Below are positions 41,696 through 64,000 of a stretch of DNA of 64,000 nucleotides, one piece after another; within the stretch, counting starts at the first letter, position 1, and each line of letters opens with the position of its first letter. A program made the position numbers and the translations under genes. The notes beneath the pieces are model-generated. The model saw only the letters and a list, made by a program, of their open reading frames with translations, was not told the origin of the DNA and did no database searches. The DNA is taken from IMG/VR virus record IMGVR_UViG_3300010344_001272, positions 11,046 to 75,045 of that record; one strand, given 5' to 3'. Source of the DNA: a virus (taxonomy: Duplodnaviria > Heunggongvirae > Uroviricota > Caudoviricetes).

Positions 41696-42040
41696 TCAAT
41701 TTTGAGTCCCTTTTTTATTAAGATAATTTCGAATATTTAGTTCTCGTAATTCTAGAATTTCCGATGATATTGAGTTCATTATATCATTTGTACCACTCCA
41801 CCATTTGGTATAAAGCATATAACGATGGTGTTCATTATCTAATTCTAAATAAGGAATAGCTATGCATTTTTTAGAAGTTGTTGTTTTCTCTTTTAACAAT
41901 TCATTTCGAACATCTCTTTTTATTTCTTGAATTGAATAGCAGGACGCTAATTCTCCATATCCATATCTATACTCATTATCTATAAGATATTTAAACAAAA
42001 AATCTACATTCTGTAAATTTAAAATAAAATATGTTTTCAT
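41696..42040 (-). CDS. hypothetical protein
   Basis: 114-aa ORF. Confidence 0.3.
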   Translation of the reverse strand: MKTYFILNLQNVDFLFKYLIDNEYRYGYGELASCYSIQEIKRDVRNELLKEKTTTSKKCIAIPYLELDNEHHRYMLYTKWWSGTNDIMNSISSEILELRELNIRNYLNKKGTQN

Positions 42041-42044
42041 TTTT

Positions 42045-43001
42045 TCAATTTAAAGCGTTTATTCCAAGCTTAAGTTTTTGGTAAAAAGGAGGGGGGGTTT
42101 TTTCCCAACGATTGTGCCAATGATACGCATAAATTTCTTTTGGTAAATTTAATTCTTCTTGTTGAAAAAATTCATCCCAGTTTTGAAAAGAAACAAATTC
42201 ATTTGGCCCTTGCCAATGAATATCAAAAAATGTTGATGGAATTATAGTCAAATCAATATCATTTTCTAATTTAAAGGATGATGTAGGATAAAATGTTTTA
42301 GGATAATTTTTAAATTTTTGAATTAAATCATGCCCCTTTTCTAATTTTAAGATAGCTGCATTTCCACAAGGATCTGTTCCCCACTGAGAAACAAACCTTT
42401 TCATCTTAATAGAATCAAAATTTCTTAAAAACAAAATATCCATATCAAACCATACTCCGCCATAAAGATATAATGTAACAAATCTAATAATATCTGAGGC
42501 ATATGCTAGATCGGCTTTATAATTTTTTTCATTTTCTTGAATTATTAAATAAGCTAATTCATCATCTGATTTATTAGGGTATATTTTTTTATATTCTTCA
42601 AATTGATATATGTTTACAGATTTAAAGTTAACTTGCATAGAATAAATAGAATAGAACAATGAAGCACCAGCTTCTTTAAAATGTTCATATGTCACTTCTT
42701 GTAATTTAATCCTATCTTTAAATAGTCTCTTTATCTTTATCCATGAATATGATCCCTGAACCTCCAGAAGGTTGGGGGTCCAAAATAAAACTGTACAATT
42801 GGGATGTGTTTCATTTAAAGATTCTAGACACATTAAATGAAGATCTGAAACTGATCCTTTCCAAAAACAATGAAAATATTGTATTGGTTCTACATCTTCA
42901 TTTCCTATTTGTGGATTGTTTCGAAGATATTCTAAAATAAATGGAACATCATTGTATTTTTCAAACGATATATCTGGGAGTAATTTCATTTTTCTTAGCA
43001 A
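42045..43001 (-). CDS. glycosyltransferase, GT32-like (DxD sugar transferase)
   Basis: YASDIIRFVTLYLYGGVWFDMD resembles GT32 family core. Confidence 0.5.
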   Translation of the reverse strand: MLRKMKLLPDISFEKYNDVPFILEYLRNNPQIGNEDVEPIQYFHCFWKGSVSDLHLMCLESLNETHPNCTVLFWTPNLLEVQGSYSWIKIKRLFKDRIKLQEVTYEHFKEAGASLFYSIYSMQVNFKSVNIYQFEEYKKIYPNKSDDELAYLIIQENEKNYKADLAYASDIIRFVTLYLYGGVWFDMDILFLRNFDSIKMKRFVSQWGTDPCGNAAILKLEKGHDLIQKFKNYPKTFYPTSSFKLENDIDLTIIPSTFFDIHWQGPNEFVSFQNWDEFFQQEELNLPKEIYAYHWHNRWEKTPPPFYQKLKLGINALN

Positions 43002-43569
43002 TTATACATTGTGTTTTTTGATTTTTATTTGTGTCATACTGATTTACAACATTCAAATATTGACCGATATATTCTCTTAATTCTGATGATGACCACTCTC
43101 TTGCGTGTGCGTCATTTTTTGGTGGTCCATTTTGAGATAACTCTAGATTATCTCTATTAGGTGTTGAAATAATTAAATATTCAAAATTAATTTTTTCAAT
43201 ATATTTCATCATTTCATCTGGGTCATTTAGATGTTCTAGTACATCCGCTAAAATAACTACTCCAAATTTTTCTTTCGGAGGAATATTTGTTTTAATTTCC
43301 CATTTCTTCTCCGGATATTTTTCTATCAAAAACTTATAAGTTTCCTCTAATTCAATTCCTAAAGTATCAAATTCTTTAAAAATATTGACTAATTTATATC
43401 CTGACCCACAACCAATATCAAGGACTGGCAATTTAGGAATAATAAGAGCGATTGTATGCGCTAACTCATAAACTTCGTATTGCCATTTATCAGTATTTGG
43501 AGTATCATCAAATGGTCTTGGATTGTCTCGATGAATATAATTCGATTTTATTTTATATAAACTTACCAT
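42961..43569 (-). CDS. class I SAM-dependent methyltransferase
   Basis: VLDIGCGSGYKL motif I. Confidence 0.55.
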   Translation of the reverse strand: MVSLYKIKSNYIHRDNPRPFDDTPNTDKWQYEVYELAHTIALIIPKLPVLDIGCGSGYKLVNIFKEFDTLGIELEETYKFLIEKYPEKKWEIKTNIPPKEKFGVVILADVLEHLNDPDEMMKYIEKINFEYLIISTPNRDNLELSQNGPPKNDAHAREWSSSELREYIGQYLNVVNQYDTNKNQKTQCIIAKKNEITPRYIV

Positions 43570-44219
43570 ATTTCTTTTCCTATTTTTTCCTGTTCTGGTT
43601 TATTTCTATATTGTTTATCAAAAACGACTACACTATCATATATGTGAATGCCCGTTGTGCTTTTTGTAAAATCAGTTATTACTAAATCATCAGATTGGCT
43701 AAAAAATGCGTGTAATTCATCTATTAAATTTTTAGTTAGTTCTATAAATGTATTTTTTGATTTATATCCTCCTCCGTAATGCGTCCAATAATTAGTATGT
43801 AAATCCTCACATAAATAAATTCCGCCGTTATTTACAAATGGATATAAAGTTTTAAAACTAGTTATTTGCTGATTCATTAAATGACCACCATCATCAATAA
43901 TAATATCAAAATTTTTTTCTTCATCAATAAGTTTATTTAAAAATTCAATATTTGCTTGATCGCCGATGTATATTTTTATTTGTTCATCTTCAATTTGTTT
44001 GCATTTTGAATTAATATCAACACTGATTATTTGTGCATTTTTACCAAAATATTCTTTCCACATTTTTAAAGAACCCCCTTGCCACACTCCAATTTCTAGA
44101 ATTTTGACGTTTTTACCAATAAATTTATTAAAATGTTTCTCATATATTTCAAAATAGTGAAGCCATTTGGTCATGGCATTTCTATCCTGATTGCTTTCAA
44201 AATATTCTAATAATTTCAT
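43563..44219 (-). CDS. SAM-dependent O-methyltransferase, CmcI/TylF-like
   Basis: ILEIGVWQGGSLKMW ... IIIDDGGH pattern. Confidence 0.5.
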   Translation of the reverse strand: MKLLEYFESNQDRNAMTKWLHYFEIYEKHFNKFIGKNVKILEIGVWQGGSLKMWKEYFGKNAQIISVDINSKCKQIEDEQIKIYIGDQANIEFLNKLIDEEKNFDIIIDDGGHLMNQQITSFKTLYPFVNNGGIYLCEDLHTNYWTHYGGGYKSKNTFIELTKNLIDELHAFFSQSDDLVITDFTKSTTGIHIYDSVVVFDKQYRNKPEQEKIGKEIW

Positions 44220-45106
44220 ATTGATGTTTCTATTATATTAAACCACTGTTCTATTCGATTTTTCCATAAATGCTTTTGATGTATGACATTTAAAATATGT
44301 GAAGTATCTATATGTATAAAATTTAAATTTTGTAAATTATTCATATTAAAGAATATCCCTAAATTATCGTTTTTGAGTATTTCTCTTTCTCCAATAGAAT
44401 CTTCATATAAAACAGGAAGCCCATATGATAAATAATCAAATACTTTGCCACAAGGGGAAGGTGTTCCTTCAAAACATAATCCGTAACTATGATTGTTTAT
44501 TGCTTTATATAAATCCGCATATTTTAATTGTCCTTTAAATTTAATATATTGTTCGTTGGGAACATCATCAACATCAAATGTATATAAATCAATATTTCTT
44601 TTTATTGCCTTAGAAAATTTTATAAGTTTATTAGTTTTCCCCTTTATTCTACCTATATATAGTAAGCTTCCATTATTATCAATTTTTGGCAAATTTTCTT
44701 GATAAACACATGCATTATGAATTAGATATTTATTAGTATGTTTTATCTTTTCAAATGATGGCGGATGAGCAATTCCAACCGCAACAAATTTATTCATTAT
44801 GTTCCAATCATGTGTAAAGGGCCAAATAGCACAATCTAATTGAATAAAAACAGGTTTTGTAAATAATGAAATGTCATTTTTTAATAATCTATGATATGTT
44901 TCTTCATGAAATATAAAGATGAAATCATAATTAAAGTTTGTAATGGAAGGAATTATATTGCTTTCTTTATCTACAACATGAAAATCTACATCATATCTGT
45001 CATTTAGTAATGTATAATATTCTTTTATTCTTGCAGAGTCAACATGCATGAATATATTATAATCTTTAACTAAATTAGAAAATGATAAGAATAATACTTT
45101 TTTCAT
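44216..45106 (-). CDS. glycosyltransferase, GT4-like C-terminal domain
   Basis: CFEGTPSPCGKVFDYLSYGLPVLYEDSIGEREIL resembles E...G...E...G.P GT-B donor-binding motif. Confidence 0.5.
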   Translation of the reverse strand: MKKVLFLSFSNLVKDYNIFMHVDSARIKEYYTLLNDRYDVDFHVVDKESNIIPSITNFNYDFIFIFHEETYHRLLKNDISLFTKPVFIQLDCAIWPFTHDWNIMNKFVAVGIAHPPSFEKIKHTNKYLIHNACVYQENLPKIDNNGSLLYIGRIKGKTNKLIKFSKAIKRNIDLYTFDVDDVPNEQYIKFKGQLKYADLYKAINNHSYGLCFEGTPSPCGKVFDYLSYGLPVLYEDSIGEREILKNDNLGIFFNMNNLQNLNFIHIDTSHILNVIHQKHLWKNRIEQWFNIIETSI

Positions 45107-47553
45107 CTATATTTTGCTAAATTCCATCTCATTTTAACTCTATGCGTTTCATTATCTCTGGATTTTCTAATATCTGAATCACCAACATCAGAAATTATTA
45201 AATTTGGAAATGATGTAAAACATTTATTAAAGTTTTTTTCTTGAATATCATGTAACATGTTATCTATAGGACGATTTTTAAAATCATTTGTATTTAATAT
45301 TTGATCATAAATTGAATGATCTACTGCATAGGCAAAAGTTCCATCACAATTTTTACTCAAATAATAGCCTCTGCTAACATTAATTCCATTCCATTCATGC
45401 TGAGAGGCACCCAGATATAGCAATTTCCAATCACTTTTTATTTGTGAAATAAACTTTGTGAAATTATCATTAAAATTTTCGATGAATAAAACGTCATCTT
45501 CAAGAATTAAGATGCGATTATATTTATTATTTTTTGCATCCTCAATTATTTTATAATGACTTAGTATACAACCTACTGCATATTTATTTATTTTTTCATA
45601 CTGTTGTAGTACGTAATCTGGTATTAAATTTCCATCAACCGCCGAAAATCTTTCAACATTTATTTTTAATTCTAAAAATCTTTGATTCACGGTTTCCCAT
45701 TTATCAGATCTTCTATCTAAATTTAAACAGTACACGTGATCAAAATAATCATTTAATGGCGAAGATTGTTTAATTTTAGTACCATTCATTCTAGTTGGAA
45801 TTTCATTATAAGCAACATAAAATCTTGATTTACGAAGTAATTGTTTTTTATTTTTTAATTGATCTTCAGTGTTCCATAATCTTCGAAATTCATTATGGCT
45901 GATATAATTATCTTTGTTTAATTGAATAAATTCGTTGCTGTCTTTGGCATCAAATGGATAGTTTAAATCATTATATCCAGATCGACAACATCTCAATGAG
46001 AAATCAACATGACCCAGACCGCATAGTCCAAAATTTTGAACATCAATAAATCCGACACTCTTTATTAAATCTTTTGTAAATGTCCAAAATGCTCCCTGTA
46101 AATTTACATTATCTACATAATTTTGCAATATATCATCTTTAAAAATTGGATTACGAACTTCATTTCTTCGAACACCCCAATTTCTGTCATAAAAAATCAA
46201 ATGAGAATACCCAGATTGTTCAATGGCATTAATATACAAATCATCCCAGCCAGATTTAATAAACACTAAATCATCATCAGATTTAAACCCGATGTCAAAT
46301 TCTTTAGATATTGAGATTTTTAATAGTTGATTTGTTTGATGGTGAACACCTCTTCTGTCATTTAATATTATTATTATTTCAATTCCATCTAATTTTAAAT
46401 TACGTAAATATTCAACAGTTCCGTCATCAGAATTATCATCAGCAACAATTAAAGTCCATTTATGTTTTTTATTAATGGTGTTATACCATGTTTCGATGGT
46501 TTTTTTAAGAAATGATAAGCGATTATATGTGGTTACAGAGTATATTAAAGATAAAGATTTAGACAAATCCTTGGGTTCATCTTTAACATGATTTTTTATT
46601 TTTCCTATAAAATTTTTAAGAGGAAAAGTTTTTTTTTCTTCTTTATGTTCAATAGGCTTCTCTTGTATTTCTTCTTTTGGTTTAGGTGTAAAGACAGAAG
46701 AAATTCCTGAAATCATTTTTTGTACATATTCTTTATCTAAATAGGGAAGTTCTTCAAATAAATCAAATGGGCATCTTGTAACTTGCGTCCCGTCAAATCT
46801 TCCTGGCCCAACAAACGGATTTCCATAAAATCCCTTTTTATTTAAAACATTAAATTTAGCTTCAGAAAATTCTTCCCATTCTTTTATATACTTAACACTC
46901 ACAAATCCTGTCACTGGATTGTCTTTATAATATGAAAACTTTTCTCTTACTCGTTTTTCTCCTACCCAAGACAGATGATAAAGAGCATTCTTTGTTGTTA
47001 AGTTTATAGGTCGGTATTTAGCCCCATCGCAGTGCCCATATTTATTTCCCTTTTGATGACGTATTATTCTAACTGAGGAATTTGGTGTTGGATTTACATA
47101 TAATTCTTTGTTATTTGTCAAAAGAAATTCAGGGGTTTTATAGAAATTATAAAATTTTGTTCCTATTGAATTTACAGATCTTTTAAAAATGGTTTCAACT
47201 TCTGCAATTAAATCTTCTTTAAAAAATTCATCCATATCAGTACACCAGAAAACATCTATGTCATCATGAACAAAATTGCTTCCATAGGAAAACATTTTAC
47301 ATTTTATTTCGTTTCCTGCACCCAATGGAGTTACTCCAGATAAATCCGTTTCTTCAATTAAAGTGATCTTGTTGTCAGGATCTGGATAATTTTTTATAAA
47401 CTCGTGACTTCCATCATCTGAAAATTTTCTTTCCTTTCCAAATACATATAAATCATAAAAAATAAGTTGGTCAAAATGCTCATATAAAAATGGCATCTTG
47501 AGCCGTAAAAAATCTATTTCATTATACAGAATTGTAAAATGGCAGTGCTTCAT
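45103..47553 (-). CDS. multidomain glycosyltransferase (GT2 domain plus GT25-like C-terminal domain)
   Basis: LIVADDNSDDGTVEYL GT2 DxD block; C-terminal FDHVYCLNLDRRSDKWETV ... ILEDDVLF GT25-like. Confidence 0.55.
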   Translation of the reverse strand: MKHCHFTILYNEIDFLRLKMPFLYEHFDQLIFYDLYVFGKERKFSDDGSHEFIKNYPDPDNKITLIEETDLSGVTPLGAGNEIKCKMFSYGSNFVHDDIDVFWCTDMDEFFKEDLIAEVETIFKRSVNSIGTKFYNFYKTPEFLLTNNKELYVNPTPNSSVRIIRHQKGNKYGHCDGAKYRPINLTTKNALYHLSWVGEKRVREKFSYYKDNPVTGFVSVKYIKEWEEFSEAKFNVLNKKGFYGNPFVGPGRFDGTQVTRCPFDLFEELPYLDKEYVQKMISGISSVFTPKPKEEIQEKPIEHKEEKKTFPLKNFIGKIKNHVKDEPKDLSKSLSLIYSVTTYNRLSFLKKTIETWYNTINKKHKWTLIVADDNSDDGTVEYLRNLKLDGIEIIIILNDRRGVHHQTNQLLKISISKEFDIGFKSDDDLVFIKSGWDDLYINAIEQSGYSHLIFYDRNWGVRRNEVRNPIFKDDILQNYVDNVNLQGAFWTFTKDLIKSVGFIDVQNFGLCGLGHVDFSLRCCRSGYNDLNYPFDAKDSNEFIQLNKDNYISHNEFRRLWNTEDQLKNKKQLLRKSRFYVAYNEIPTRMNGTKIKQSSPLNDYFDHVYCLNLDRRSDKWETVNQRFLELKINVERFSAVDGNLIPDYVLQQYEKINKYAVGCILSHYKIIEDAKNNKYNRILILEDDVLFIENFNDNFTKFISQIKSDWKLLYLGASQHEWNGINVSRGYYLSKNCDGTFAYAVDHSIYDQILNTNDFKNRPIDNMLHDIQEKNFNKCFTSFPNLIISDVGDSDIRKSRDNETHRVKMRWNLAKYR

Positions 47554-47555
47554 GA

Positions 47556-48269
47556 TTATTTATAGTCCTTGTAAGATTTAACTTCAACAATATTAGAACC
47601 ATACTTCTCATTAATTTTCTTTTTAAGGAGACTACGTTCATCATTTGTTATATATACCGCTCTTGCAAGTTTAACGAATATTTCATCATATTGTTTACGA
47701 TCTTCTTTTATTCGAATATTGTCTTCTATTCCCCACAATGCCTCATTTTTCTTTTTTAGTTGAAAATAAAGTTTATCATCTATTGGAAATTTACTAGATA
47801 TTTCATTCAATAAGAGCAATTCTTTTTGAATTAATTTCAATTTTTCTTCATCTTTAATTCTTTCCATCTTTATTTCTAAAATAGAAATTTTATCATAAAG
47901 TTCTCCTAATGAAATTGGTGCTAATATTTCCATATTTTTGGTTGTTAATTGATTCCTATAATTTACTTTTACTTGATCTCCTTCGAAGTATTTTTCTGGA
48001 TGATTGAACAAGTTTTCAATTGGTGCCCAAGAAACTACTTCGAAATCTCCTGGTTCAACCCGCTCGTCTTTAAATAATCTATCATATGTATATCGATAAT
48101 TGCCAGGATGACCTCTAAGAGCCTCAAATGAATATGTTTTAAAGTCATTATTTAAAAGTAACATTGCCCCATCGCTAGTTCTACGAATCGCAAATGGGAT
48201 ATGTTGATCTACGTAAAGTTTTTTATAATACTCTTTTAGATCATTTAAGTTTTTTAAAGAATTTTCCAC
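47556..48269 (-). CDS. hypothetical protein
   Basis: 237-aa ORF. Confidence 0.35.
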   Translation of the reverse strand: MENSLKNLNDLKEYYKKLYVDQHIPFAIRRTSDGAMLLLNNDFKTYSFEALRGHPGNYRYTYDRLFKDERVEPGDFEVVSWAPIENLFNHPEKYFEGDQVKVNYRNQLTTKNMEILAPISLGELYDKISILEIKMERIKDEEKLKLIQKELLLLNEISSKFPIDDKLYFQLKKKNEALWGIEDNIRIKEDRKQYDEIFVKLARAVYITNDERSLLKKKINEKYGSNIVEVKSYKDYK

Positions 48270-48955
48270 GGTAATTTTGTTGTTGGTGTTCCGCCTTCTC
48301 CGACTAAATGTATTTTAACATATTTATGAAAATATAAATTTTCATCTTGTCTAAGTTGCATACAATCAATAAGATTGAAAAATGAGGAATCTATGCAATG
48401 TACTTCTTTAGCCTTTTCAATAGTATATAAAAAATGAAATATTGAAATATCTTTTCGATCTGGTCTAATTATCCGAATATCTGTTGGAAGTTTATCTGGT
48501 AACATAGGACGTTCAAAGTCATCATGAACAAAAATAAATTTACTATCATCTTTTAAACCAAGTTTATTATAGTAAACATTCTTTTCTTCTTCTAATTGTC
48601 GCTTAATGTAAAATCTTTTCCATTTATCTTCAAACGGAACATTAGCCATTTTATAAAATATTTGATCAAATCTACCCTTTGGATCCTCACGGAGTTCTTC
48701 GTGTAATTTTTGATGTCCTACAATTAAATAATTATTTTGAGGGCTAATAGAAATAAATTGTTGAACTTGATCTTCTTCCATTGGCATTATGTAAATTTTA
48801 GGATTGTCCCTAAACATCCACATAACATTTTTAGTATTTTTTGGTTTAGAAAAAACATAAATACGATCATATTTTTCTGCATAAAATCTCACCAATCCAT
48901 TGCAAGCAATTTGATCGCCGAGTCCTAAATGTTCATATATGTAAATAGTTTTCAC
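48254..48955 (-). CDS. hypothetical protein, possible GT9-like transferase
   Basis: N-terminal HLGLGDQIACNGLVR weakly resembles heptosyltransferase N-terminus. Confidence 0.3.
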   Translation of the reverse strand: MKTIYIYEHLGLGDQIACNGLVRFYAEKYDRIYVFSKPKNTKNVMWMFRDNPKIYIMPMEEDQVQQFISISPQNNYLIVGHQKLHEELREDPKGRFDQIFYKMANVPFEDKWKRFYIKRQLEEEKNVYYNKLGLKDDSKFIFVHDDFERPMLPDKLPTDIRIIRPDRKDISIFHFLYTIEKAKEVHCIDSSFFNLIDCMQLRQDENLYFHKYVKIHLVGEGGTPTTKLPWKIL

Positions 48956-49608
48956 AACGATTCATTCTTTAATAAAACATCATAGTCATATTTTTCCACA
49001 ACACTCCACTTTCCTGGAAGTTTCTTCAAAATTTCATCTAATCCTATTTCTCCTTCATACATTTCTTGTTCATATACTTCTGTATATAAGTATTTTGTAT
49101 TGGATAAAGCTTTTTGACCATGTTCTATTAAATCAATTTCAGCACCTTGAATATCTGCCCAAATAAAATCAATAATTCCTGGCTGAACTTTATCATAATA
49201 AGTATCGAATCTTATTGATGGAATTATGCAAGGTTGAAATTGCATATCTGGAAATTCTGATAAGGTTTCTTTTGGTTTTCGAATAGATGAAGAACCATAA
49301 AACTCCTGTTTTATTTTATCGGGTCTTGATTCTTGGCCACTAGAAAGATAAAATTTTACATTTCCATCTTTATTCCCTACTGCTGCTTGAACGAATGTTA
49401 TTTCGGGATGAATTTGATTATTTATTTTAAACTGAGGAACTATTCGCGGATCTGCTTCAAATGCGTAATATTTGAAATTCTTCTTGTGCTTTTTAAGAAT
49501 GTTGCACATCTGTTTTGTTTGAAGACCCTCACAAGTTCCAAATTCAAATATAACAGGAGCATCACTATTTTTAATGATACTCTGAAAATGATCCATAATC
49601 TCGATCAT
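48952..49608 (-). CDS. FkbM-family methyltransferase
   Basis: VIFEFGTCEGLQT ... YAFEADPR pattern. Confidence 0.5.
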   Translation of the reverse strand: MIEIMDHFQSIIKNSDAPVIFEFGTCEGLQTKQMCNILKKHKKNFKYYAFEADPRIVPQFKINNQIHPEITFVQAAVGNKDGNVKFYLSSGQESRPDKIKQEFYGSSSIRKPKETLSEFPDMQFQPCIIPSIRFDTYYDKVQPGIIDFIWADIQGAEIDLIEHGQKALSNTKYLYTEVYEQEMYEGEIGLDEILKKLPGKWSVVEKYDYDVLLKNESL

Positions 49609-49618
49609 ATTATCTTAT

Positions 49619-52006: not shown

Positions 52007-52007
52007 A

Positions 52008-56217: not shown

Positions 56218-56218
56218 A

Positions 56219-56734: not shown

Positions 56735-57561
56735 TTTTCAAAATTAATCAAATTTTCAATATGTTTGTTCTTTTGTTCCTCTGTAAATACAGGTTCTTCA
56801 TACATTTCTTCCCAAAAACTTTGATTTTCATCAGCTGTTTTAATCCAATCTAACCAATCAGGGTGTTTCATTACATTGATAAAAGCTTTTGGATTCCAAT
56901 CTTGTTCGATTTTTGGATCACCCCAATATATTGGCATTGAACCAACTAAAAAGGCATCCATTAATTTTTCAGTTGAATAATATGGATATGAAGTATTCTC
57001 ATAAGTCATCATGAACTTATGAGGGTGTTTTAAAAAGAATTCATCCTTAGCATCTCTCCAATATTTTCCTTCTGTAGCATTTTTTAATTCGAACGTATTC
57101 ATTCTAACTTTACCATAAGAATGGACCTTTTTATATGATGATATAAGGTCAAAATGATTATTCCTCAACATGTTAGATGGATTAGAAACTGTAAAAGCAC
57201 AAAATCTTTCAAAGTTGTCCAATCGTTTACGTTCAAATAATCGATCTTTAAGTTCTGGTTTCATTAACCAGTATATTTGCCATAAAGGCAAACGAAAGTT
57301 TGTTTTTGAATGAGGATCAAATGAAATAGAATAGTTTGAACCAAATTGATGAGGTCTCCAGTTCTCAGCTAATATCAGAACTTTTTTGCATTTGTATTTC
57401 GGCGTCTCCACCATTCTATTAAAAATAGAATGAAAAAGAACGTCAGGATTGCTTTTAGAAAGAGTAACGCTAAAGTGTCCATTCAATATCGGGGTTATAA
57501 AATCTTCGACATTCCATTCGGGCCAAAAATCTGTAAACCATATTTTTAATTCGGGTTTCAT
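56710..57561 (-). CDS. alpha-1,3-fucosyltransferase (GT10)
   Basis: TYENTSYPYYSTEKLMDAFLVGSMPIYWGDPKIEQDWNPKAFINV aligns with GT10 block ENSQGYGYVTEKIIDAYFSHTIPIYWGSPSVAKDFNPKSFVNV. Confidence 0.7.
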   Translation of the reverse strand: MKPELKIWFTDFWPEWNVEDFITPILNGHFSVTLSKSNPDVLFHSIFNRMVETPKYKCKKVLILAENWRPHQFGSNYSISFDPHSKTNFRLPLWQIYWLMKPELKDRLFERKRLDNFERFCAFTVSNPSNMLRNNHFDLISSYKKVHSYGKVRMNTFELKNATEGKYWRDAKDEFFLKHPHKFMMTYENTSYPYYSTEKLMDAFLVGSMPIYWGDPKIEQDWNPKAFINVMKHPDWLDWIKTADENQSFWEEMYEEPVFTEEQKNKHIENLINFEKWLIEIVS

Positions 57562-57569
57562 TATATATT

Positions 57570-58352
57570 TTATTCGTAATCATTCTCATTTAAACCAAGC
57601 ATAAAAACATTTCCTCCGAGGAATTGTACTTGATCATAGTTTTTGTTTTTACCTCTTATATCCGAACTCAACATTTTAGTTGGAATTACAAGAGGAGGAG
57701 TCGCTATATAAAAATTAAATTTATCATGAGTCATCATATGAAGTGTAATTGTATCAGCTATCATAGGTTGTGTATCGGCAATTTGAATATATCTTTCCAT
57801 TGCTCTTCTGTTCATTCCATATGCTAATATTGACCAGCTTGCAAATCCTTTTGTCCAACGTGGCTTTACTCGAATGTTTTGTGGTTCAAGCTTTGCCATA
57901 TATGAATATAATAAAATTCCATCTGCATCTTCAGGAACACTATCTAAATATTTTTTAATAAGTGTATCAAAATCTTTATGAAAGGCACAATCATCTTCAA
58001 AAATAAACAAACTTTGGACTCCTTCTAATAATGCAGTTTTAATTACGTGATAATGTGATTGCATTGCCCCTAATTCGTTTGGAAATTGAGGATTAAAAAG
58101 AACTTTTCTATTTACAATATTATGTTTTTGGCAATAAGGTTCTAACAATCTTGCTGCATATCCTGGAATAACAGGCCTAAACCATTCTACTTCAATATCA
58201 TGTTTTATGAACTGCGACAGCATATATTTGTACTTGTCATCACGTTCTTTCAAACAAATACATACAACTTTGTTATATTTCTCGTTAATTAGACTCATAT
58301 ATCTTTTATGAAGATGTTCATTGATAGTTTTAACCACATAATTGATATTCAA
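57570..58352 (-). CDS. putative GT25-like glycosyltransferase
   Basis: KVVCICLKERDDKYKYM ... IFEDD. Confidence 0.4.
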   Translation of the reverse strand: MNINYVVKTINEHLHKRYMSLINEKYNKVVCICLKERDDKYKYMLSQFIKHDIEVEWFRPVIPGYAARLLEPYCQKHNIVNRKVLFNPQFPNELGAMQSHYHVIKTALLEGVQSLFIFEDDCAFHKDFDTLIKKYLDSVPEDADGILLYSYMAKLEPQNIRVKPRWTKGFASWSILAYGMNRRAMERYIQIADTQPMIADTITLHMMTHDKFNFYIATPPLVIPTKMLSSDIRGKNKNYDQVQFLGGNVFMLGLNENDYE

Positions 58353-58629
58353 GCCATAAAGTATAATCAGAAGTTAATCTTTCTGGCGAATTTCTTTTTG
58401 TTGGATATGTAGCGTAGCAAGCAGTATCACAATGATAAATGTCCCGAATTTCTCGTATACCTAATTGTTCTTCCATCCAAAGTCCATAAATGGATTTAGG
58501 TGTACCTCTGATAACATGTCTATCTTTAATAATCCAGCCATCCCATGGATGCCATTCATTTTCATCGCACCAAACAGGATATTCTCCTGTTTCCATAATA
58601 AATTTTACTCTAAGATCTATTGGTGTCAT
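58330..58629 (-). CDS. hypothetical small protein
   Basis: 99 aa. Confidence 0.3.
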   Translation of the reverse strand: MTPIDLRVKFIMETGEYPVWCDENEWHPWDGWIIKDRHVIRGTPKSIYGLWMEEQLGIREIRDIYHCDTACYATYPTKRNSPERLTSDYTLWLEYQLCG

Positions 58630-59435
58630 ACGTCTAATATTATTTTTTTAAATTTTGGTTCGTAATCTATTGATTTAATTGTATGATATAAATTTAAACA
58701 CATTTTCTTTTGTAAAGAATAACCAGAATCTGCATATTCAAAAAATGGGTGTTCGGATTTATAATAAAACAAAGTATTGCCGTGGTCAAATCTCTTAGTT
58801 GTTCCAAATATCATTGTATTTTGATTCATACGAGGATCTACAAAAATTGTCATATTTTTAAATTTCCCAAATGGATGAATAAATACAGGATCAACATTAG
58901 TTGTATCTACATTAAATGTACTAAAAGCTACTGGGTAAACTGTATTATGACCTATAAAATTAGCTATTTCGGGTGAAACAATTGCATAAAATAAATCATC
59001 TTGATAATAATTGTAAATTTCTATTTGACATTGTTCTATGATCCCAAGTATATTTTCATAACGATTAACATCTAATTTTTTAGAAGTTAAATGAAATCGA
59101 GTATTAACTTTTAAATATTTTATTGGGGGTTTATAAATGTTATTTTTATAAAATGAAATTCGTTCTGTGATACAATGATTTTCAACAAATTCTTTAAATT
59201 TGTCTTCAAGATTTAATAGAAATTTTTTTGAAGCAATATCTAATGAAGGTTCTGCTTGGCCTTGATTATATGGAATGATCATATCTTCTCTATAATTTTG
59301 TAATGAAATTTCTTGAGTTTCTACTAATGTAGAATATTTGAACACAGGAGCAGGAGCTTGCACCATTTTTACAAAATTATTCAAAGAAGAACTTTTATAG
59401 ATCCAATCAATAAACTTATCTATTTGAGCATCCAT
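58626..59435 (-). CDS. hypothetical protein
   Basis: 269-aa ORF. Confidence 0.35.
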   Translation of the reverse strand: MDAQIDKFIDWIYKSSSLNNFVKMVQAPAPVFKYSTLVETQEISLQNYREDMIIPYNQGQAEPSLDIASKKFLLNLEDKFKEFVENHCITERISFYKNNIYKPPIKYLKVNTRFHLTSKKLDVNRYENILGIIEQCQIEIYNYYQDDLFYAIVSPEIANFIGHNTVYPVAFSTFNVDTTNVDPVFIHPFGKFKNMTIFVDPRMNQNTMIFGTTKRFDHGNTLFYYKSEHPFFEYADSGYSLQKKMCLNLYHTIKSIDYEPKFKKIILDV

Positions 59436-60622
59436 TAGAATAAGGCCTTTGGCTTCAATGATTTAACATCAACAATTTCTATATTATTTATCGTCCTAGT
59501 TTTTTCTGCATTCTCTAAATATAAATCTTCTATTAACTTACAAAATTGTTTGCTTAAATCTTCTTTTGAAATATAAGAATCTTCATACTGAGCCTTTAAA
59601 ACCTCGATCATAAAATCAGGGTCAGCTTTAAGCTGTCTTAATTTTTCAACTAGTTCTTTTTGATTTTTAACATACAAAAAATCTTGTAAGAACTTATCTG
59701 AGAATGCTCTCTTTTGTGGATCATATTCTAAATCCATAAATGAAACTACATTTGCTAAAACTGTTTCATAGATTCTTGGATTTAATTGTCTACCTTCATT
59801 AAATGTATCGCTTATGTTTATAGTAGCAATTGCGCTATTCATTTTCTGAAGATTTTCCTTAAATTGAATTGGACCTTCAAATTTTGGAAGTATTTTACCT
59901 GCAACTAACGAAGGTTTAAAATCTTCAAGTTTCATTTTTCCATAAAATACACCACTTATATCTGATGGAAGATCAAAGTAATATTTGACCATTTTCTTTT
60001 CTCTCTTATTTCTAAAGCTATTTGCTCCATAAATAAGATCAATAGTTTTAGTTCCAATAAAATTTAATCGTTCACTAAAAAATGGATATTTTTCAAATGG
60101 AAAGTAAACAATCTTTTTAGGATTTATTCCTGTCTTTTCAGTTATTTGAAATACTGCTTCAGTATCATAGCACATCGTAATGTAAATAATATCATCACGA
60201 GTTATGTTCATGTTCTTCTCTTCATATTTTTTACTCCAGGGCTTAGCTTTGATGCTCTCCCATACATTCTTTAGTGGAAGTAATGTGTCTATGAATACAT
60301 AGAAGACAGGGCCTTGGAAGTTATTAATCACATGTAGATTCATCAATTGTTCTGGTGTCTCAGCACCTCCATAAAAATTGATGTTTCCGTTAATAACTAT
60401 CAAAGCATCATAATTTCCAGAAATTGAATTATAATGTTTGGTAATATCAAAAATGTTTAATTCAGGTATTGGAAGATCTTTATCAGAAATTTTTGTATAA
60501 CAATCAGCATGATGAAGGCCACCAATACTTAGCATTTTGCTGATTGAAACAGCTTCAAATGATGTAATTCCGTGTCCTTCATTAGCAATTCTTCCACCTA
60601 ATTTTATTACAGCTACTTTCAT
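59435..60622 (-). CDS. hypothetical protein in glycan locus
   Basis: 395-aa ORF. Confidence 0.35.
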   Translation of the reverse strand: MKVAVIKLGGRIANEGHGITSFEAVSISKMLSIGGLHHADCYTKISDKDLPIPELNIFDITKHYNSISGNYDALIVINGNINFYGGAETPEQLMNLHVINNFQGPVFYVFIDTLLPLKNVWESIKAKPWSKKYEEKNMNITRDDIIYITMCYDTEAVFQITEKTGINPKKIVYFPFEKYPFFSERLNFIGTKTIDLIYGANSFRNKREKKMVKYYFDLPSDISGVFYGKMKLEDFKPSLVAGKILPKFEGPIQFKENLQKMNSAIATINISDTFNEGRQLNPRIYETVLANVVSFMDLEYDPQKRAFSDKFLQDFLYVKNQKELVEKLRQLKADPDFMIEVLKAQYEDSYISKEDLSKQFCKLIEDLYLENAEKTRTINNIEIVDVKSLKPKALF

Positions 60623-61071
60623 ATATTAAAATCTTCTATTTTTAATTTAAAAAACTTCATAAAATTTTCATGATTTAGGTGATATTCCATATTGTCAAGC
60701 AAATCGGAAACTTGATCGTAAGCTTCTTTTCCAACAACATTACCACTGTGTAAAAAATAAACTATTGCGCTGCCCTTATAAAGAGTATCACTTATAATTA
60801 ATTCTAATTTCCATTTATCTCCATGCATCCAATATCTTTGGTCAACACAGCGAGTCAAAAATCCAATACCCTTTTTATTTGTAGCTCGTAGAAAAAGCAT
60901 ATAAGGTTTATTTGGACCAATGTCACAAGAACAAGATATTTTAATTCCAGGTAAAGATTTTATGGCTTCTTCTAAATCTCTTTTTGCAGCAAGCCACTTA
61001 CCTTCTTCATCAGTAATTAATTCTCTATCTATTTTTTTAGGAAACTGAATCATTTCAATTGATTTTTCCAA
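60619..61071 (-). CDS. hypothetical protein
   Basis: 150-aa ORF. Confidence 0.3.
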   Translation of the reverse strand: MEKSIEMIQFPKKIDRELITDEEGKWLAAKRDLEEAIKSLPGIKISCSCDIGPNKPYMLFLRATNKKGIGFLTRCVDQRYWMHGDKWKLELIISDTLYKGSAIVYFLHSGNVVGKEAYDQVSDLLDNMEYHLNHENFMKFFKLKIEDFNI

Positions 61072-61736
61072 GAGTTAAATTTATTCTCGTCATATCCTCT
61101 AGCTAAAAAACCAGGATGCCATATAGAATGAAAATTTAATTTCATATGAAACTTTTGAAACACTGGATGATTAAGTAAATACTCTTTAAATAGTGGGTAT
61201 TCTTCGTAATTACCCATAAAAACAAGGTTCATTTCAGATATACCGTATACTATTTTATATATGTAGAAGATAACTATAAGTTCTTTGAAAATGAAATTAA
61301 AATCCTTATTAAAAGGTTTGTTTGGTTCATTATAAATATTCGTAAAATAAGGGTATATGTTTAAGGAAATTAAAAGCTTATGTAATAATACACTGCTAGG
61401 ACCAAACAGCCATGCAGTGTCTGCTTTACTTAAATGTGCATATACGTGACCAGGACGAATTCCAATAAAAATATAGTTATTGCTTTTTGAAAGATTTCCT
61501 CTTGAAGGAGTGTAGATATTATTGTCTACAAAGTCTTTGTAAATTTTTAGATAGTTTGTTTGGGCTTCTAAATTCGAAAAAACAAAACCAGGAAATCTTA
61601 AATAACGAATATCACTTGTATCTGAAAGAAAAAATGAATGTTTTTGTTGTGCAATTATTTCCCATTCATTATCTTGTATCTCTGTTAAATTTTGTGAAGA
61701 AGCAAAATGAACATTATTTACCTCGATTCGTACCAT
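61050..61736 (-). CDS. hypothetical protein
   Basis: 228-aa ORF. Confidence 0.35.
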   Translation of the reverse strand: MVRIEVNNVHFASSQNLTEIQDNEWEIIAQQKHSFFLSDTSDIRYLRFPGFVFSNLEAQTNYLKIYKDFVDNNIYTPSRGNLSKSNNYIFIGIRPGHVYAHLSKADTAWLFGPSSVLLHKLLISLNIYPYFTNIYNEPNKPFNKDFNFIFKELIVIFYIYKIVYGISEMNLVFMGNYEEYPLFKEYLLNHPVFQKFHMKLNFHSIWHPGFLARGYDENKFNSWKNQLK

Positions 61737-61945
61737 TTATAATTGTGTTTTTCAAATTCTTCTTGTGTTACTAAGCCAAAAGTATCTAATTGATCTAAAA
61801 TATCTTTTTCTCTATCTCTGCAAGCTGCTGCGCGTTCAAAATGTTGTTCATTAATGGCTTGTATTTTTTTCTCCATTATATCTTCAAGAGCTAATCGTAG
61901 CTCTTGAATTTTTTCCCAAGTTTCTATATGTTGTTTTGAATCCAT
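61718..61945 (-). CDS. hypothetical small protein
   Basis: 75 aa. Confidence 0.3.
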   Translation of the reverse strand: MDSKQHIETWEKIQELRLALEDIMEKKIQAINEQHFERAAACRDREKDILDQLDTFGLVTQEEFEKHNYKWYESR

Positions 61946-62295
61946 TAAAAACCTAAACGATGGATAAATCTTTGAAATGGATTACGCATATCATGTTCAA
62001 TCATTTCTTCAGTTATTACAGCATGCACCGGCATTGTTTGCCAGTCATCAGGCTGAGGATTTGGTACTGCTTGTACTCCTTGAATACCTTGTATTGCGTG
62101 TTGAAATCCCCCTACATTAATCATAGCAGTTGCTCCTCCGCCAACCCAAGTTGTAGCTGATGATCCTCCACCAACATAAGAGCGACCCATAGAAATGGTT
62201 CGCTTACTTAAGCTAATTCGAAAATTTTGCTGAATATATTGAATATCAAATCTGATCTTTTCTGGCTTCAATCCAGAATCCGCCATAGTAGCCAT
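61945..62295 (-). CDS. hypothetical Gly-rich protein
   Basis: 116 aa. Confidence 0.3.
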   Translation of the reverse strand: MATMADSGLKPEKIRFDIQYIQQNFRISLSKRTISMGRSYVGGGSSATTWVGGGATAMINVGGFQHAIQGIQGVQAVPNPQPDDWQTMPVHAVITEEMIEHDMRNPFQRFIHRLGF

Positions 62296-62671
62296 TGTGT
62301 TCGTTGTGATTTGACATTGTAAAAATTCCCTTGTCGGTTTTTACATCCAGAAATTGTACTTCGTGGACTTCACCCCATTCATCCTCCATATCTGGAGCAT
62401 CTTTTATTTCAAAATCTTCAAGAATTGCTCCACAATATTCATTAAGATCATCATCAGTTCTCATGTAACGATGTTCACAGCAGCTTTGTCCGCCATCCCA
62501 CATTACTAATTGAGTTCCATCTTCTAGGTTAAATCGAAGTTTGTCATTTTCTTCATCAAGCCAAACTTTTTCAATTCGTTTACCTACTGATTCCTTTATA
62601 GAATTTACGGTTTCTTCGTTTCCACCCATCATACAAAGCATGACTCCCATTCCTAATCTGTCTGATTTCAT
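62246..62671 (-). CDS. hypothetical protein
   Basis: 141 aa. Confidence 0.3.
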   Translation of the reverse strand: MKSDRLGMGVMLCMMGGNEETVNSIKESVGKRIEKVWLDEENDKLRFNLEDGTQLVMWDGGQSCCEHRYMRTDDDLNEYCGAILEDFEIKDAPDMEDEWGEVHEVQFLDVKTDKGIFTMSNHNEHNGYYGGFWIEARKDQI

Positions 62672-63033
62672 TTTAATTTGTCTTTAGCGTTAATATCTAT
62701 ATCGTAATAATTACAAGTTATTTCTTCTCCTTTTTTAATATCTCTTAGAGCAATCATTCTGCCATCATTAAGAGGACCTGTATTTGGATCGTCAGAATGA
62801 TTTGTGTATTTGTCATTATCTAATGAAACTATCCACTGTTCTGTTTGTTTATCTCGAAATGAATATTTTTTTAAATATTTTTTATCAATTCCTGCTAATT
62901 TCAATCCATCTAAAACTATATCAAATCCTCTAAAAAATTCCCAAGTTATTGTTCCTTTAGGAATATCTTCATCAGCAAACAAACCTTCTCCATTTATAGA
63001 ACTATCTTTAACTATAGTTTTAACTTTTAACAT
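62668..63033 (-). CDS. SET-domain protein lysine methyltransferase-like
   Basis: NHSDDPN and GEEITCNYY match NHSCDPN and ELTxDY SET motifs; N-terminal GEGLFA. Confidence 0.55.
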   Translation of the reverse strand: MLKVKTIVKDSSINGEGLFADEDIPKGTITWEFFRGFDIVLDGLKLAGIDKKYLKKYSFRDKQTEQWIVSLDNDKYTNHSDDPNTGPLNDGRMIALRDIKKGEEITCNYYDIDINAKDKLK

Positions 63034-63401
63034 TATCTTTCCACTTCTTTAAAGATGAAAGGAACTGTACCAAGTATTTCTTCAAAATCTTTTCCAACAT
63101 CAATCATATCTTGATCTTTTAATTCATGACACCAAGTAACTGTTGTAGGAAAATTTTTGAATTTATACATCATAGCCATTAATTCTTTAGCTGTTGCAGT
63201 ATTAAAATATTCAAGATTAATTGTAACATCTAAATTTTTACTAGGTGTTTCTCCATAAATATCTAATTGTTTTTGAAGCTCTTTAAAAAATTGTTTAGCA
63301 TCTTCAGGAACACAACGGCCTTCTATATCAAGAATTCCTTTATCCCCATCAAAAAATACGTATGGAGTTCTATCTTCAGCAGAATATCTTATGACTTCCA
63401 T
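63033..63401 (-). CDS. hypothetical protein
   Basis: 122 aa. Confidence 0.3.
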   Translation of the reverse strand: MEVIRYSAEDRTPYVFFDGDKGILDIEGRCVPEDAKQFFKELQKQLDIYGETPSKNLDVTINLEYFNTATAKELMAMMYKFKNFPTTVTWCHELKDQDMIDVGKDFEEILGTVPFIFKEVER

Positions 63402-63415
63402 AATTTTTAATTATT

Positions 63416-64000
63416 TTATTTCCAGAATGAATACATTCCTTTTTCTACTTCATAAGGAATTGTTTTCACGGTCCTTTCAGGTTGCATCATTCCCCATGTA
63501 AACATATCGTGCATAACCTTTTCAAGATCAGTTCCATCAACAAAGCTTAAAAGTTTTTTAGCCTTGGAATGATCACAAAAAGCATCTTTCACTTCATGCC
63601 TTGGTTCAAGATGTTTTATTTCACTTTTAAATCCATGCTTTTGAGCAACACCATTTAATAAATTAGCTGCATCTATGATGTGATATTCTTTATCAGCACC
63701 AATATTAAATGTTTCACCATTATATTCTTCCATTAATCTAGTAAATGGTTCCATATAAAATGAAATATCAGAAAATGCTCTCTTTTGTAAACCATCACCA
63801 AAAATGGTGATAGGCTGTTTATTTAAAATTTGTCTAATCCAAATTCCTATAACGTTTCTATAACGATCCCAAATATTTTGGTACATACCTACAACGTTAT
63901 GAGGTCTTACAATTGTAAAGTTTAATCCAAACTGATTGTTTGCTTGTTTAATATCTTGTTCAACAGTAAACTTAGCGATTCCATAAGGATCAATAGGTGA
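63416..64000 (-). CDS. NAD-dependent sugar-nucleotide epimerase/dehydratase, N-terminus beyond window
   Basis: frame stays open upstream of the ORF-track Met; SPIDPYGIAK (YxxxK catalytic motif) and IFGDGLQKRAFSDISF; partial. Confidence 0.55.
   Translation of the reverse strand, partial: SPIDPYGIAKFTVEQDIKQANNQFGLNFTIVRPHNVVGMYQNIWDRYRNVIGIWIRQILNKQPITIFGDGLQKRAFSDISFYMEPFTRLMEEYNGETFNIGADKEYHIIDAANLLNGVAQKHGFKSEIKHLEPRHEVKDAFCDHSKAKKLLSFVDGTDLEKVMHDMFTWGMMQPERTVKTIPYEVEKGMYSFWK

Follow-up and report, generated by a model that had tools for sequence, protein, structure and literature searches.

A hypervariable glycan island beside a DNA glucosyltransferase homolog in a Lak-related megaphage, with DNA as a candidate acceptor

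Introduction

Why would a phage carry a long run of genes for building a glycan, and onto what would that glycan be placed? The question is raised by a 64,000-nucleotide stretch of DNA (positions 11,046 to 75,045 of the IMG/VR record IMGVR_UViG_3300010344_001272, from a virus of the Caudoviricetes), which was analysed as a whole and is called the window throughout. On its minus strand, from 40883 to the window end, the list of open reading frames (ORFs) shows a single co-directional array of 34 complete ORFs and one that is cut. A preliminary description had read everything from 41.7 kb to the window end as a glycan locus of a T4-like phage, possibly serving virion glycosylation or the remodelling of the host surface.

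The co-directional array is real, but its part between 58.3 and 63.4 kb does not encode glycan biosynthesis. We regard the block as composite: a conserved DNA-modification module is joined to a hypervariable, horizontally exchanged glycan-extension cassette. Among the possible acceptors we rank DNA as the best supported, ahead of virion proteins and then the host surface; the two targets proposed earlier are thus not the favoured ones, in an array without membrane or export proteins, and both remain live rivals. That the phage DNA carries, on its hydroxymethylcytosine, a variable methylated oligosaccharide is in our judgement a serious possibility, which stops somewhat short of being probable. 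Numbers with an L denote contigs used for comparison, and family calls were judged against the curated Pfam and NCBIfam cut-offs.

A conserved module around a DNA glucosyltransferase homolog

The gene at 59435-60622 is, judged by its sequence, a member of the T4 DNA beta-glucosyltransferase (BGT) family (PF09198, CAZy GT63). It reaches 68.5 bits against PF09198 (cut-off 27), matches phrog_7922 at 1.7e-54 over residues 1-347, and aligns with PDB entry 1bgt at 1.6e-31, residues 2-347 falling on residues 2-329 of the chain in a full two-domain alignment. Its E23, D112, R207, R283 and E286 align with E22, D100, R195, R269 and E272 of the T4 enzyme, while T4 R191 aligns one position off, with an S-F-R motif present (R204); these six T4 residues are those that we take to be the catalytic base and the UDP-binding residues.

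Two genes upstream of the BGT homolog lies a 228-residue protein of the uracil-DNA glycosylase (UDG) superfamily. Three of its homologs carry PF03167, and its AF2 model (pLDDT 89) finds uracil-DNA glycosylases, mostly of family 4, as the top seven Foldseek matches in the PDB. On the other side, the start of a gene for an HK97-fold protein overlaps the stop codon of the BGT homolog; this family is confined to the present lineage. Its 269-residue product was also considered as a 5mYOX dioxygenase, which the fold search ruled out. The conserved end of the array comprises the following features:

58330..58629, minus strand: 99-aa conserved ORF
58626..59435, minus strand: HK97-fold capsid-like protein, 269 aa, resembling T4 gp24/gp23 in a fold search
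59435..60622, minus strand: T4 BGT homolog (T4-Gluco-transf, PF09198, 7.4e-19)
60619..61071, minus strand: 150-aa conserved ORF
61050..61736, minus strand: UDG-superfamily protein, 228 aa, with variant motif A (GIRPG) and retained HP motif
61718..63401, minus strand: five conserved small genes, for a UVR-motif protein (4.5e-07), a 116-aa ORF, a DUF7448 protein (1.9e-19), a 121-aa SET protein (1.2e-12) and a SiaC-family protein (3.2e-27)
63416..64000, minus strand: C-terminal part of a GalE-like SDR sugar-nucleotide epimerase (Epimerase 3.2e-18), cut by the window end

The epimerase had been noticed before as a gene running off the window. It is indeed an SDR epimerase, whose full-length form in L002 (329 aa) has galE as its best match, below the cut-off. 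The SET protein (62668-63033, minus strand) is similar in size to the chlorovirus histone methyltransferase vSET, and a second SET protein of 422 aa is encoded on the opposite strand just past the window end (L002 2295-3563).

A hydroxymethylase homolog in close relatives

Is hydroxymethylcytosine within reach of this lineage? A close relative is represented in one sample by contigs of 259,840 bp and 54,062 bp, more than 310 kb together. By walking along the longer contig, we found a gp42-like gene in a cluster that lies 14.5 kb beyond BGT and consists of a P-loop kinase, Gmd, Fcl, an exonuclease and the gp42-like gene, with divergently oriented genes in between. The kinase has weak similarity to thymidylate kinases, Gmd scores 3e-139, and Fcl is a GDP-fucose-synthase-like SDR. 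The gp42-like protein (293 aa) matches CMP/dCMP hydroxymethylases of the PDB at 1.8e-20 and 9e-18, and thymidylate synthases at 4.5e-14 or weaker; it keeps the catalytic Cys and has Asp at the two specificity positions, the equivalents of E. coli ThyA 169 and 177.

Related metagenome contigs contain copies of this gene (99%, 94% and 92% identity), the 94% copy being in JGI sample Ga0209311, which also contains a 100% identical BGT. The linkage of kinase, Fcl and hydroxymethylase is kept in relatives down to 60% identity. Contigs of the exact strain that carry SiaC are at most 9.5 kb long and stop short of the hydroxymethylase region. No Lak phage was among the best 40 gp42-like matches. A 174-aa gene following the relative's gp42-like gene was examined as a homolog of the 171-aa gene of the island, and this was not supported.

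The association extends to more distant viruses. In RsoM2USA, LR756500.1 and the IMG/VR contigs L018 and L087, a gp42-like gene is found 0.5-5 kb from a BGT homolog of 35-40% identity, and the gp42-like proteins concerned carry the cytosine-specifying Asp. In L087, a homolog of the UDG-like protein directly follows the gp42-like gene and the BGT homolog, and such UDG-like homologs adjoin genes for DNA polymerase, Thymidylat_synt, dCMP deaminase, 5-hmdU DNA kinase, and FkbM and class I methyltransferases; FkbM genes are also present in the DNA-hypermodification clusters of L100 and L102. We listed 80 viral loci with gp42-like neighbourhoods in IMG/VR, so that the counts among them are lower bounds. 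In at least 11 of these loci, a homolog of the island's UDP-galactopyranose mutase (Glf; 44-48%) follows the gp42-like gene at a distance of about 330 bp downstream, and in at least five (L040, L050, L057, L058, L073) an epimerase homolog (57-61%) is found near the gp42-like gene. Three island families of no assigned function behave alike: homologs of the 171-aa ORF (30-34%) overlap the gp42-like stop codon in L133, L146 and L164, a 48% homolog of the 219-aa ORF stands directly after a gp42-like gene and Gmd in L182, and a 40% homolog of the 233-aa ORF is found in L121, 5 kb upstream of a dCMP-hydroxymethylase homolog and in the same cluster as Gmd, Fcl and DegT.

Some of these neighbourhoods deserve mention in their own right. 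The contig L121 comes from a different phage within the same set of samples. It links genes for a DegT-family aminotransferase, Gmd, Fcl and a dCMP-hydroxymethylase homolog (5770-10879), which suggests that amino-deoxy sugars of the perosamine type may also be tied to cytosine modification. In two related phages (L109 10828-11628; L121 15-2775), the genes immediately upstream of the kinase-Gmd-Fcl-hydroxymethylase cluster encode ankyrin-repeat proteins, which are unusual for phages. The clusters around UDG-like homologs in L100 (12379-17061) and L102 (1566-7105) combine a 5-hmdU DNA kinase domain (HMUDK_hel), inositol-1-phosphate synthase, and FkbM and class I methyltransferases, and may represent an undescribed thymidine hypermodification with an inositol-derived group. 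Lastly, a 254-kb viral contig (L046 6137-14759) encodes in order DNA polymerase III alpha, a gp42-like protein, Glf, two ORFs and a GalE-like epimerase; it is a compact candidate cluster for galactofuranosyl-cytosine DNA modification, with similar arrangements in about ten other IMG/VR contigs.

The glycan island

Downstream of the conserved module, the array continues with genes for glycosyltransferases (GTs), methyltransferases dependent on S-adenosylmethionine (SAM) and enzymes of nucleoside diphosphate (NDP) sugars:

41696..42040, minus strand: 114-aa ORF; no Pfam match; 99-100% identical in L103 and L108
42045..43001, minus strand: GT32-like glycosyltransferase (Gly_transf_sug 9.4e-10, 39.5 bits against a cut-off of 23); DXD motif is DMD
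42961..43569, minus strand: class I SAM methyltransferase (Methyltransf_23 2.3e-09, above cut-off)
43563..44219, minus strand: TylF/CmcI-like SAM methyltransferase (Methyltransf_24 8.9e-07, above cut-off)
44216..45106, minus strand: 296-aa ORF, possibly GT-B-like on a weak match (Glyco_trans_1_2, E=0.0057, below cut-off)
45103..47553, minus strand: 816-aa multidomain protein; N-terminal domain (residues 1-330), then GT2, then GT25
47556..48269, minus strand: DUF6165 protein (1.6e-11)
48254..48955, minus strand: 233-aa ORF; no family match in Pfam, PHROGs or NCBIfam
48952..49608, minus strand: FkbM-family SAM methyltransferase (Methyltransf_21 8.5e-16)
49619..50422, minus strand: GT47/exostosin-like transferase, borderline (Exostosin_GT47 4.9e-08, 33.1 bits against a cut-off of 33.4)
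50422..51108, minus strand: paralog A, 228 aa, possibly GT31-like on a weak match; 51% identical to paralog B
51132..51791, minus strand: 219-aa ORF; no family match
51788..52286, minus strand: two small ORFs of 72 aa and 92 aa, the latter 89-91% conserved across island variants
52283..52951, minus strand: GT25 glycosyltransferase (Glyco_transf_25 4.9e-09); 53-92% identity across strains
52951..53646, minus strand: paralog B, 231 aa; 51% identical to paralog A
53643..54539, minus strand: RmlD-like NDP-4-keto-6-deoxyhexose reductase (RmlD_sub_bind, PF04321, 5.7e-51)
54539..55615, minus strand: UDP-galactopyranose mutase, Glf (GLF, PF03275, 8.9e-59)
55612..56217, minus strand: class I SAM methyltransferase (Methyltransf_11 1.4e-07)
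56219..56734, minus strand: 171-aa ORF; 67-84% identity across strains; first gene with the identity drop described below
56710..57561, minus strand: GT10 alpha-1,3-fucosyltransferase-like protein (FucT_N 2.9e-13, Glyco_transf_10 4.6e-09)
57570..58352, minus strand: GT25 glycosyltransferase in the conserved part of the block (Glyco_transf_25 6.9e-09); 89-100% identity across strains

Most of the enzymes that the preliminary description had proposed for a complex O-methylated glycan with galactofuranose and fucose are borne out by these profiles, their motifs are intact, and the relative encodes Gmd and Fcl in addition. Glf passes the TIGR00031 equivalog at 307.1 bits (cut-off 303.75), aligned over 2-357 of 358, besides its match to PF03275. 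The GT10 protein lies above the cut-off in both Pfam domains (FucT_N 50.5 bits against 27.2, Glyco_transf_10 36.6 against 23.9) and conserves the C-terminal nucleotide-sugar motif YENTSYPYYSTEK (YENxxxxYxTEK). The three GT25-like transferases correspond to the two single-domain genes and to the C-terminus of the 816-aa protein (Glyco_transf_25 1.9e-17, residues 605-722), which also holds the predicted GT2 in its middle (Glycos_transf_2 5.2e-10, residues 340-483), so that one protein accounts for two of the calls; its N-terminal 330 residues have no Pfam or PDB match. In the translations, EDD is intact in all three GT25 domains, as are DDxSxD and DDD in GT2. The GT32-like call and the four SAM methyltransferases hold as well, and genes at the island position matching 43563..44219 in relatives show a weak TylF match. 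The RmlD-like reductase is well placed in PF04321, though its 173.9 bits against TIGR01214 stay below the equivalog cut-off of 224.

Other assignments fared less well. A GT4-like transferase could not be upheld, as the 296-aa ORF shows at best the weak match listed above and has no PHROG or NCBIfam match. The two supposed GT31-like transferases are indeed paralogous, yet neither reaches the GT31 threshold (PF01762): one gives 13.8 bits against a cut-off of 23 (Galactosyl_T, E=0.05), the other has no match, and the pair has three homologs only in 5.8 billion proteins. Conversely, the GT47-like ORF, whose homologs in L001, L002 and L004 are flagged with the same family, was absent from the earlier list, as were the DUF6165 protein and all the assignments between 58.3 and 63.4 kb, among them the BGT homolog, the UDG-superfamily protein and the HK97-fold protein. 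For nine island proteins without an assigned family PHROGs gave no match, and NCBIfam none for six; a relaxed Pfam search of the unassigned proteins returned sub-threshold hints only. An exact-match look-up of the major capsid protein (MCP) and the 816-aa protein found nothing on record.

A mosaic of exchanged cassettes

How stable is this arrangement between strains? Comparison across related phages, proposed in the preliminary description, revealed a conserved backbone with an island of variable gene content. The identical BGT protein is present on 16 contigs from several metagenomes. Among them, the genes from the epimerase to the 99-aa ORF are 95-100% identical, and the adjoining GT25 and GT10 genes 89-100%. 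From the 171-aa ORF onward, identity drops to 43-90% and gene content changes between strains. Glf, the RmlD-like gene and paralog B are absent from L001, L002 and L004, which have DUF3431 and other genes instead; paralog B is also absent from L015, and among the contigs compared the RmlD-like gene occurs only in islands of the window type. In total, at least five gene arrangements stand behind identical or 83%-identical BGTs.

Segments of the island nevertheless recur almost unchanged in diverged surroundings. The part at 47.2-49.7 kb is found at 99.8-100% identity in an IMG/VR relative with a backbone of about 80% identity (BGT 83%), and that at 42.0-47.5 kb, again at 99.8-100%, in another relative (MCP 94%). 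The island is thus a patchwork, in which cassettes that were exchanged recently sit on a conserved scaffold.

Could such a patchwork be an artefact, in which contaminating host DNA or a chimeric assembly has been joined to the DNA of the phage? The G+C content of the island lies below that of its flanks (26-30% over 42-56 kb against 32-39% in most of the window), and assemblies of relatives often break within the island, for example into two contigs in sample 3300044580. These breaks are due to strain variation, and the locus is genuine: L009 is 100% identical over 7,567 bp (window 51493-59059), which excludes a chimera, and the order FucT, 171-aa ORF, methyltransferase, Glf, RmlD-like gene, 231-aa paralog, GT25 is shared with its internal junctions by six independent assemblies. 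Furthermore, a single IMG/VR contig covers the capsid gene, the island, BGT and the epimerase, and gene packing, strand and codon style run on from the phage backbone. We consider the chance of an artefact negligible.

Which acceptor fits best?

Apart from one marginal segment in the UDG-like protein, 19-residue hydropathy windows show no transmembrane segment in any of the 34 proteins, and Pfam and NCBIfam reveal no flippase, polymerase, ligase, ABC exporter or polyprenyl-phosphate priming transferase among them. Assembly of the glycan should therefore be cytoplasmic, on a soluble or peripheral acceptor. Since BGT and UDG-like genes are part of the block and a hydroxymethylase homolog is part of the lineage, DNA is a serious candidate. 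Secondary transferases and sugar-nucleotide enzymes accompany the BGT homolog, GT25 and GT10 being two to three genes downstream and Glf, the RmlD-like reductase and the epimerase in the same array.

Several observations speak against DNA. No hydroxymethylase gene was found in the window, none lies closer than 10 kb to BGT there, in L001-L006 or in L015-L017, and no ThyA homolog or 5mYOX clusters with BGT here, a feature of hypermodification clusters that distant BGT homologs do display. With at least eight solid GT domains and four methyltransferases, the island goes far beyond known DNA glycans, none of which is to our knowledge longer than three sugars. At about 15% cytosine, we estimate that long glycans on every hydroxymethylcytosine would approach the DNA's own mass and strain packaging. 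Moreover, GT25, GT10, GT2 and GT32 are classic enzyme families of lipo-oligosaccharide (LOS) synthesis. The array is also functionally mixed, with SET and SiaC genes, an HK97-fold gene right after BGT, and a major capsid gene abutting it, so that adjacency by itself is not enough to link the island with BGT; among distant relatives, the HK97-like gene shows no linkage to BGT. Should DNA serve as acceptor, the scale of the locus implies that the transferases are likely alternatives or branches, or act sub-stoichiometrically: each base probably receives few sugars, not one long chain.

The same mixed array, together with the HK97-fold gene and an island that ends 30 nt from the convergent major capsid gene, keeps virion glycosylation plausible. 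Here, the methylated glycan would be built in the cytoplasm on the MCP, the HK97-fold 269-aa protein or the fibres, while the BGT homolog would glucosylate DNA independently or would have been recruited to a protein acceptor. Without membrane or export machinery a cytoplasmic acceptor is needed, and strain-level variability also suits an exposed surface structure. The multidomain GT2-GT25 protein and the methyltransferases recall the glycan enzymes of chloroviruses. Phage virion glycosylation as such is documented in work cited within PMC12619734. Against this reading, we know the T4 BGT family only from DNA glucosylation, and the matches of the BGT homolog among the searched records are DNA enzymes only. 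In this lineage, the GDP-fucose genes are conserved beside the dCMP hydroxymethylase homolog and not beside structural genes, and Glf, the epimerase and the three unassigned island families recur beside hydroxymethylase genes in other viruses. No acceptor motif turned up, no acceptor analysis having been made, and the samples appear, to judge by one contig title and one MAG name, to be sludge or digester communities, in which no antibody pressure would lie behind the hypervariability. We regard a virion acceptor as unlikely, yet far from negligible.

A third target would be the host surface, where intermediates of LOS, the lipopolysaccharide (LPS) core or the capsule would be altered or extended at the inner face of the membrane during infection, to block superinfection by other phages. 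GT25, GT10, GT2 and GT32 are all found here and are typical of the LOS/LPS outer core. Several GTs with NDP-sugar genes, strain variability and a low G+C content, common in acquired polysaccharide loci, are further features of such loci, and the polymorphic clusters of cyanophages, with some 15 genes that include many paralogous GTs besides NDP-sugar enzymes and O-methyltransferases, have been read as host-surface remodelling (PMC7824862). What weakens this route is the lack of any membrane protein and of Wzx/Wzy, Wzm/Wzt, WaaL or a priming transferase in the array; nor is there a sign of lysogeny or pseudolysogeny in the window. It also leaves unexplained why island families and GDP-fucose genes are linked to dCMP hydroxymethylase genes, and why a BGT and UDG module sits inside the array. 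We therefore judge it improbable.

Comparison with known systems

The T-even system for glucosylated hydroxymethylcytosine is the closest to the conserved module: the BGT homolog is 30% identical over 88% of the protein with the catalytic residues kept, and a gp42-family enzyme bearing the cytosine-specific Asp is encoded in the lineage. In T2, T6 and CC31, a beta-glucosyl-HMC-alpha-glucosyltransferase extends the first sugar in a second step. However, BGT adjoins gene 42 in T4-like phages and lies about 15 kb from it here; one or two glucoses are added there, as opposed to BGT and at least eight further GT domains, four methyltransferases and NDP-sugar enzymes here; and the T-even carriers are Straboviridae, not a Lak-related megaphage.

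Cytoplasmic virion glycosylation with soluble GTs and multidomain GT-methyltransferase proteins occurs in the chlorovirus PBCV-1 and the mycobacteriophages Che8, Corndog and Myrna, whose virion glycans contain fucose, galactose and methylated deoxy-sugars and whose genes lie near capsid genes. Unlike the present locus, these systems have no DNA-glucosyltransferase homolog and no linkage to a hydroxymethylase.

In RB69, DLP3 and Rhizobium phage RL38J1, the clusters for poly-glycosylated cytosine bring together a thymidylate-synthase homolog, a nucleotide kinase resembling thymidylate kinase, several transferases of the GT-B type and phage genes for making sugar nucleotides (PMC13326640). RL38J1 encodes a UDP-galactopyranose mutase and carries Gal-Glc-Glc on cytosine (PMC13326640), and kinase, hydroxymethylase homolog and Glf are all present in our lineage. 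The differences are that these phages use 5-hydroxycytosine synthases with D169N (PMC13326640), whereas the relative's enzyme keeps Asp, and that their clusters are syntenic, with three sugars at most and no reported fucose or methylation, whereas the present island is hypervariable.

Phage GTs place mono- to trisaccharides on 5-hydroxymethylcytosine (5hmC), with second-step enzymes that resemble LPS transferases (10.1101/2023.12.21.572611). In the 5hmC clusters that Pyle et al. described from metaviromes (10.1101/2023.12.21.572611), a T4 BGT-like GT-B enzyme takes the first step, with epimerases, secondary GTs and methyltransferases nearby, as here, and some clusters adjoin structural genes, as the island does. 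Those clusters contain one to three GTs and are defined by an adjacent 5mYOX or ThyS, in contrast to about 17 kb of GT and methyltransferase genes with no hydroxymethylase within 10 kb.

In gene content, the island resembles the 'LPS' clusters of jumbo T4-like cyanophages such as P-SSM2 (PMC7824862), which are likewise large and co-directional, contain paralogous GTs of several families, NDP-sugar enzymes and O-methyltransferases, and are polymorphic between related phages with gp23-type capsids. They have no reported BGT/UDG module, and their proposed target is the host surface in pseudolysogeny (PMC7824862). As these clusters reach about 15 genes with many GTs, the preliminary view that such a scale is usually seen in giant viruses overstated the rarity of the locus (PMC7824862).

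A possible route to a DNA glycan

If DNA is the acceptor, how might the glycan be made? A dCMP hydroxymethylase of the thymidylate-synthase family, encoded in close relatives and presumed for the window strain, would make 5-hydroxymethyl-dCMP, to be put into DNA. The BGT homolog at 59435-60622, with an activity that we deduce from its family, would then place a first hexose on hydroxymethylcytosine. The conserved GT25 and GT10 may add galactose or glucose and then alpha-1,3-fucose, giving a conserved inner glycan. The pairing would then recall the two enzymes that form Lewis-type structures in the LPS of Helicobacter. Strain-specific soluble transferases (GT25, GT2, GT32, GT47-like and others) and the four methyltransferases would add and cap outer sugars, with galactofuranose supplied via Glf and the GalE-like epimerase and a 6-deoxy sugar via the RmlD-like reductase. 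The resulting strain-variable DNA glycan could block restriction enzymes and evade modification-dependent nucleases and glycosylases, and defence pressure would drive the turnover of cassettes in the fashion of O-antigens.

In its full form this amounts to an O-antigen-like DNA modification: an inner part of beta-hexose, galactose or glucose, and alpha-1,3-fucose on hydroxymethylcytosine, with a strain-specific, O-methylated outer part containing galactofuranose, whose cassettes are swapped under pressure from modification-dependent defence. We consider so detailed a proposal less likely than not.

Boundaries of the array and the phage that carries it

Gaps between array genes range from -50 to +23 nt, and start and stop codons often overlap. 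Sigma-70-like sites are not enriched in the array (117, against 140±13 in shuffled sequence), and no terminator-like hairpins were found between its genes. In related contigs, the array runs on for about 2.4 kb past the window end, with three to four additional co-directional genes (ORFs of 218 aa, 150/168 aa, and 76 or 103 aa, to which L183 adds another two, and the complete epimerase of 329 aa) before a divergent gene set begins; the block thus extends to about 25.5 kb in total. At the other end, the array converges on the gp23-type major capsid gene (39095-40852, plus strand) with a gap of 30 nt, and on a prohead-protease fusion gene of the plus strand. The last array gene is:

40883..41692, minus strand: GIY-YIG/NUMOD3 homing-endonuclease-like ORF (NUMOD3 1.8e-07; N-terminus GLIYLVENKINGKKYIGQ)

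It is 93-98% identical in L103 and L108, and is one of three such ORFs in the window (5730-6284, 18204-18848, 40883-41692), placed at the boundary of island and capsid gene. Another homing endonuclease splits the sugar-gene cluster of the relative L121, and homing endonucleases may act as promoters of cassette exchange. Two paralogous zinc-ribbon nuclease-like ORFs are located at 3390-4052 and 17118-17750.

The stop codons of the 34 array genes (40883-63886, minus strand) are TAA in 19 and TGA in 15 cases, with no TAG; Lak phages show stop-codon recoding, which makes this avoidance of TAG notable. An alternative genetic code was considered, but recoding TAG, TGA or TAA lengthens no minus-strand ORFs, and the standard code is therefore kept.

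To which phages does the locus belong? Megablast of both window halves against 50,697 phage records gave no match. The capsid module is of the gp23/gp21 type (Gp23 2.4e-38, Peptidase_S77 2.2e-14), in line with the T4-like phage described before, but the nearest capsid relatives are Lak megaphages: the MCP is 48% identical to those of Prevotella Lak megaphages (540-550 kb) and 41% to that of the 462-kb uncultured phage LR756500.1, and Straboviridae capsid proteins are much more distant. The phage is a Lak-related megaphage, T4-like in its capsid module only. A SprB-repeat protein encoded in the window hints at a Bacteroidota host.

The remainder of the window holds further features on the plus strand. 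There are 22 tRNA genes in several clusters (2849-18151), among them two tRNA-Ile, four tRNA-Arg and three tRNA-Ser, and some small listed ORFs that overlap tRNA genes (e.g. 4502-4732, 17808-18053) are probably not genes. Auxiliary genes (7572-7931, 9371-10003, 25329-26491, 26488-27024, 33100-33996, 35427-36488) have as products RF-1-domain (ArfB-like), RNA ligase, guanylate-kinase-like and cytidylyltransferase-like (NMNAT-type) proteins, and further a peptide deformylase, a radical SAM protein and a patatin-like phospholipase. Another five ORFs, all small (20911-21318, 29013-29543, 29821-30273, 30266-30751, 30621-31073), are paralogs of one another; they share the N-terminal motif H-S-x-I-D-V-I-T-N-S-S-T-E-L/I-F and have no Pfam match. 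A 94-aa ORF far from the capsid gene (9978-10262) matches only the N-terminal 50 residues of the Gp23 family (LVSVQPMAAPTGVF).

Implications

Large GT clusters in phages and the glycosylation of phage DNA are each known; their apparent fusion into a hypervariable, O-antigen-like island of a megaphage is new. Whichever acceptor applies, the trio of BGT, GT25 and GT10 and the Gmd-Fcl-hydroxymethylase cluster provide about six directly testable genes. If the target is the virion or the host surface, few glycan loci of other non-cyanobacterial phages would equal this one in size and variability, and its recent lateral exchange between phage lineages is clear. If the glycan is indeed built on DNA, it would surpass every known natural DNA modification in complexity and be the first to contain fucose or methyl-sugars. 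The known chemistry of such modifications, with its one to three simple sugars, would expand to branched and methylated glycans that include fucose and galactofuranose. DNA glycans would then diversify through cassette exchange like bacterial O-antigens, which would bear on restriction evasion by huge phages, on DNA-labelling enzymes and on the sequencing bias against such genomes.

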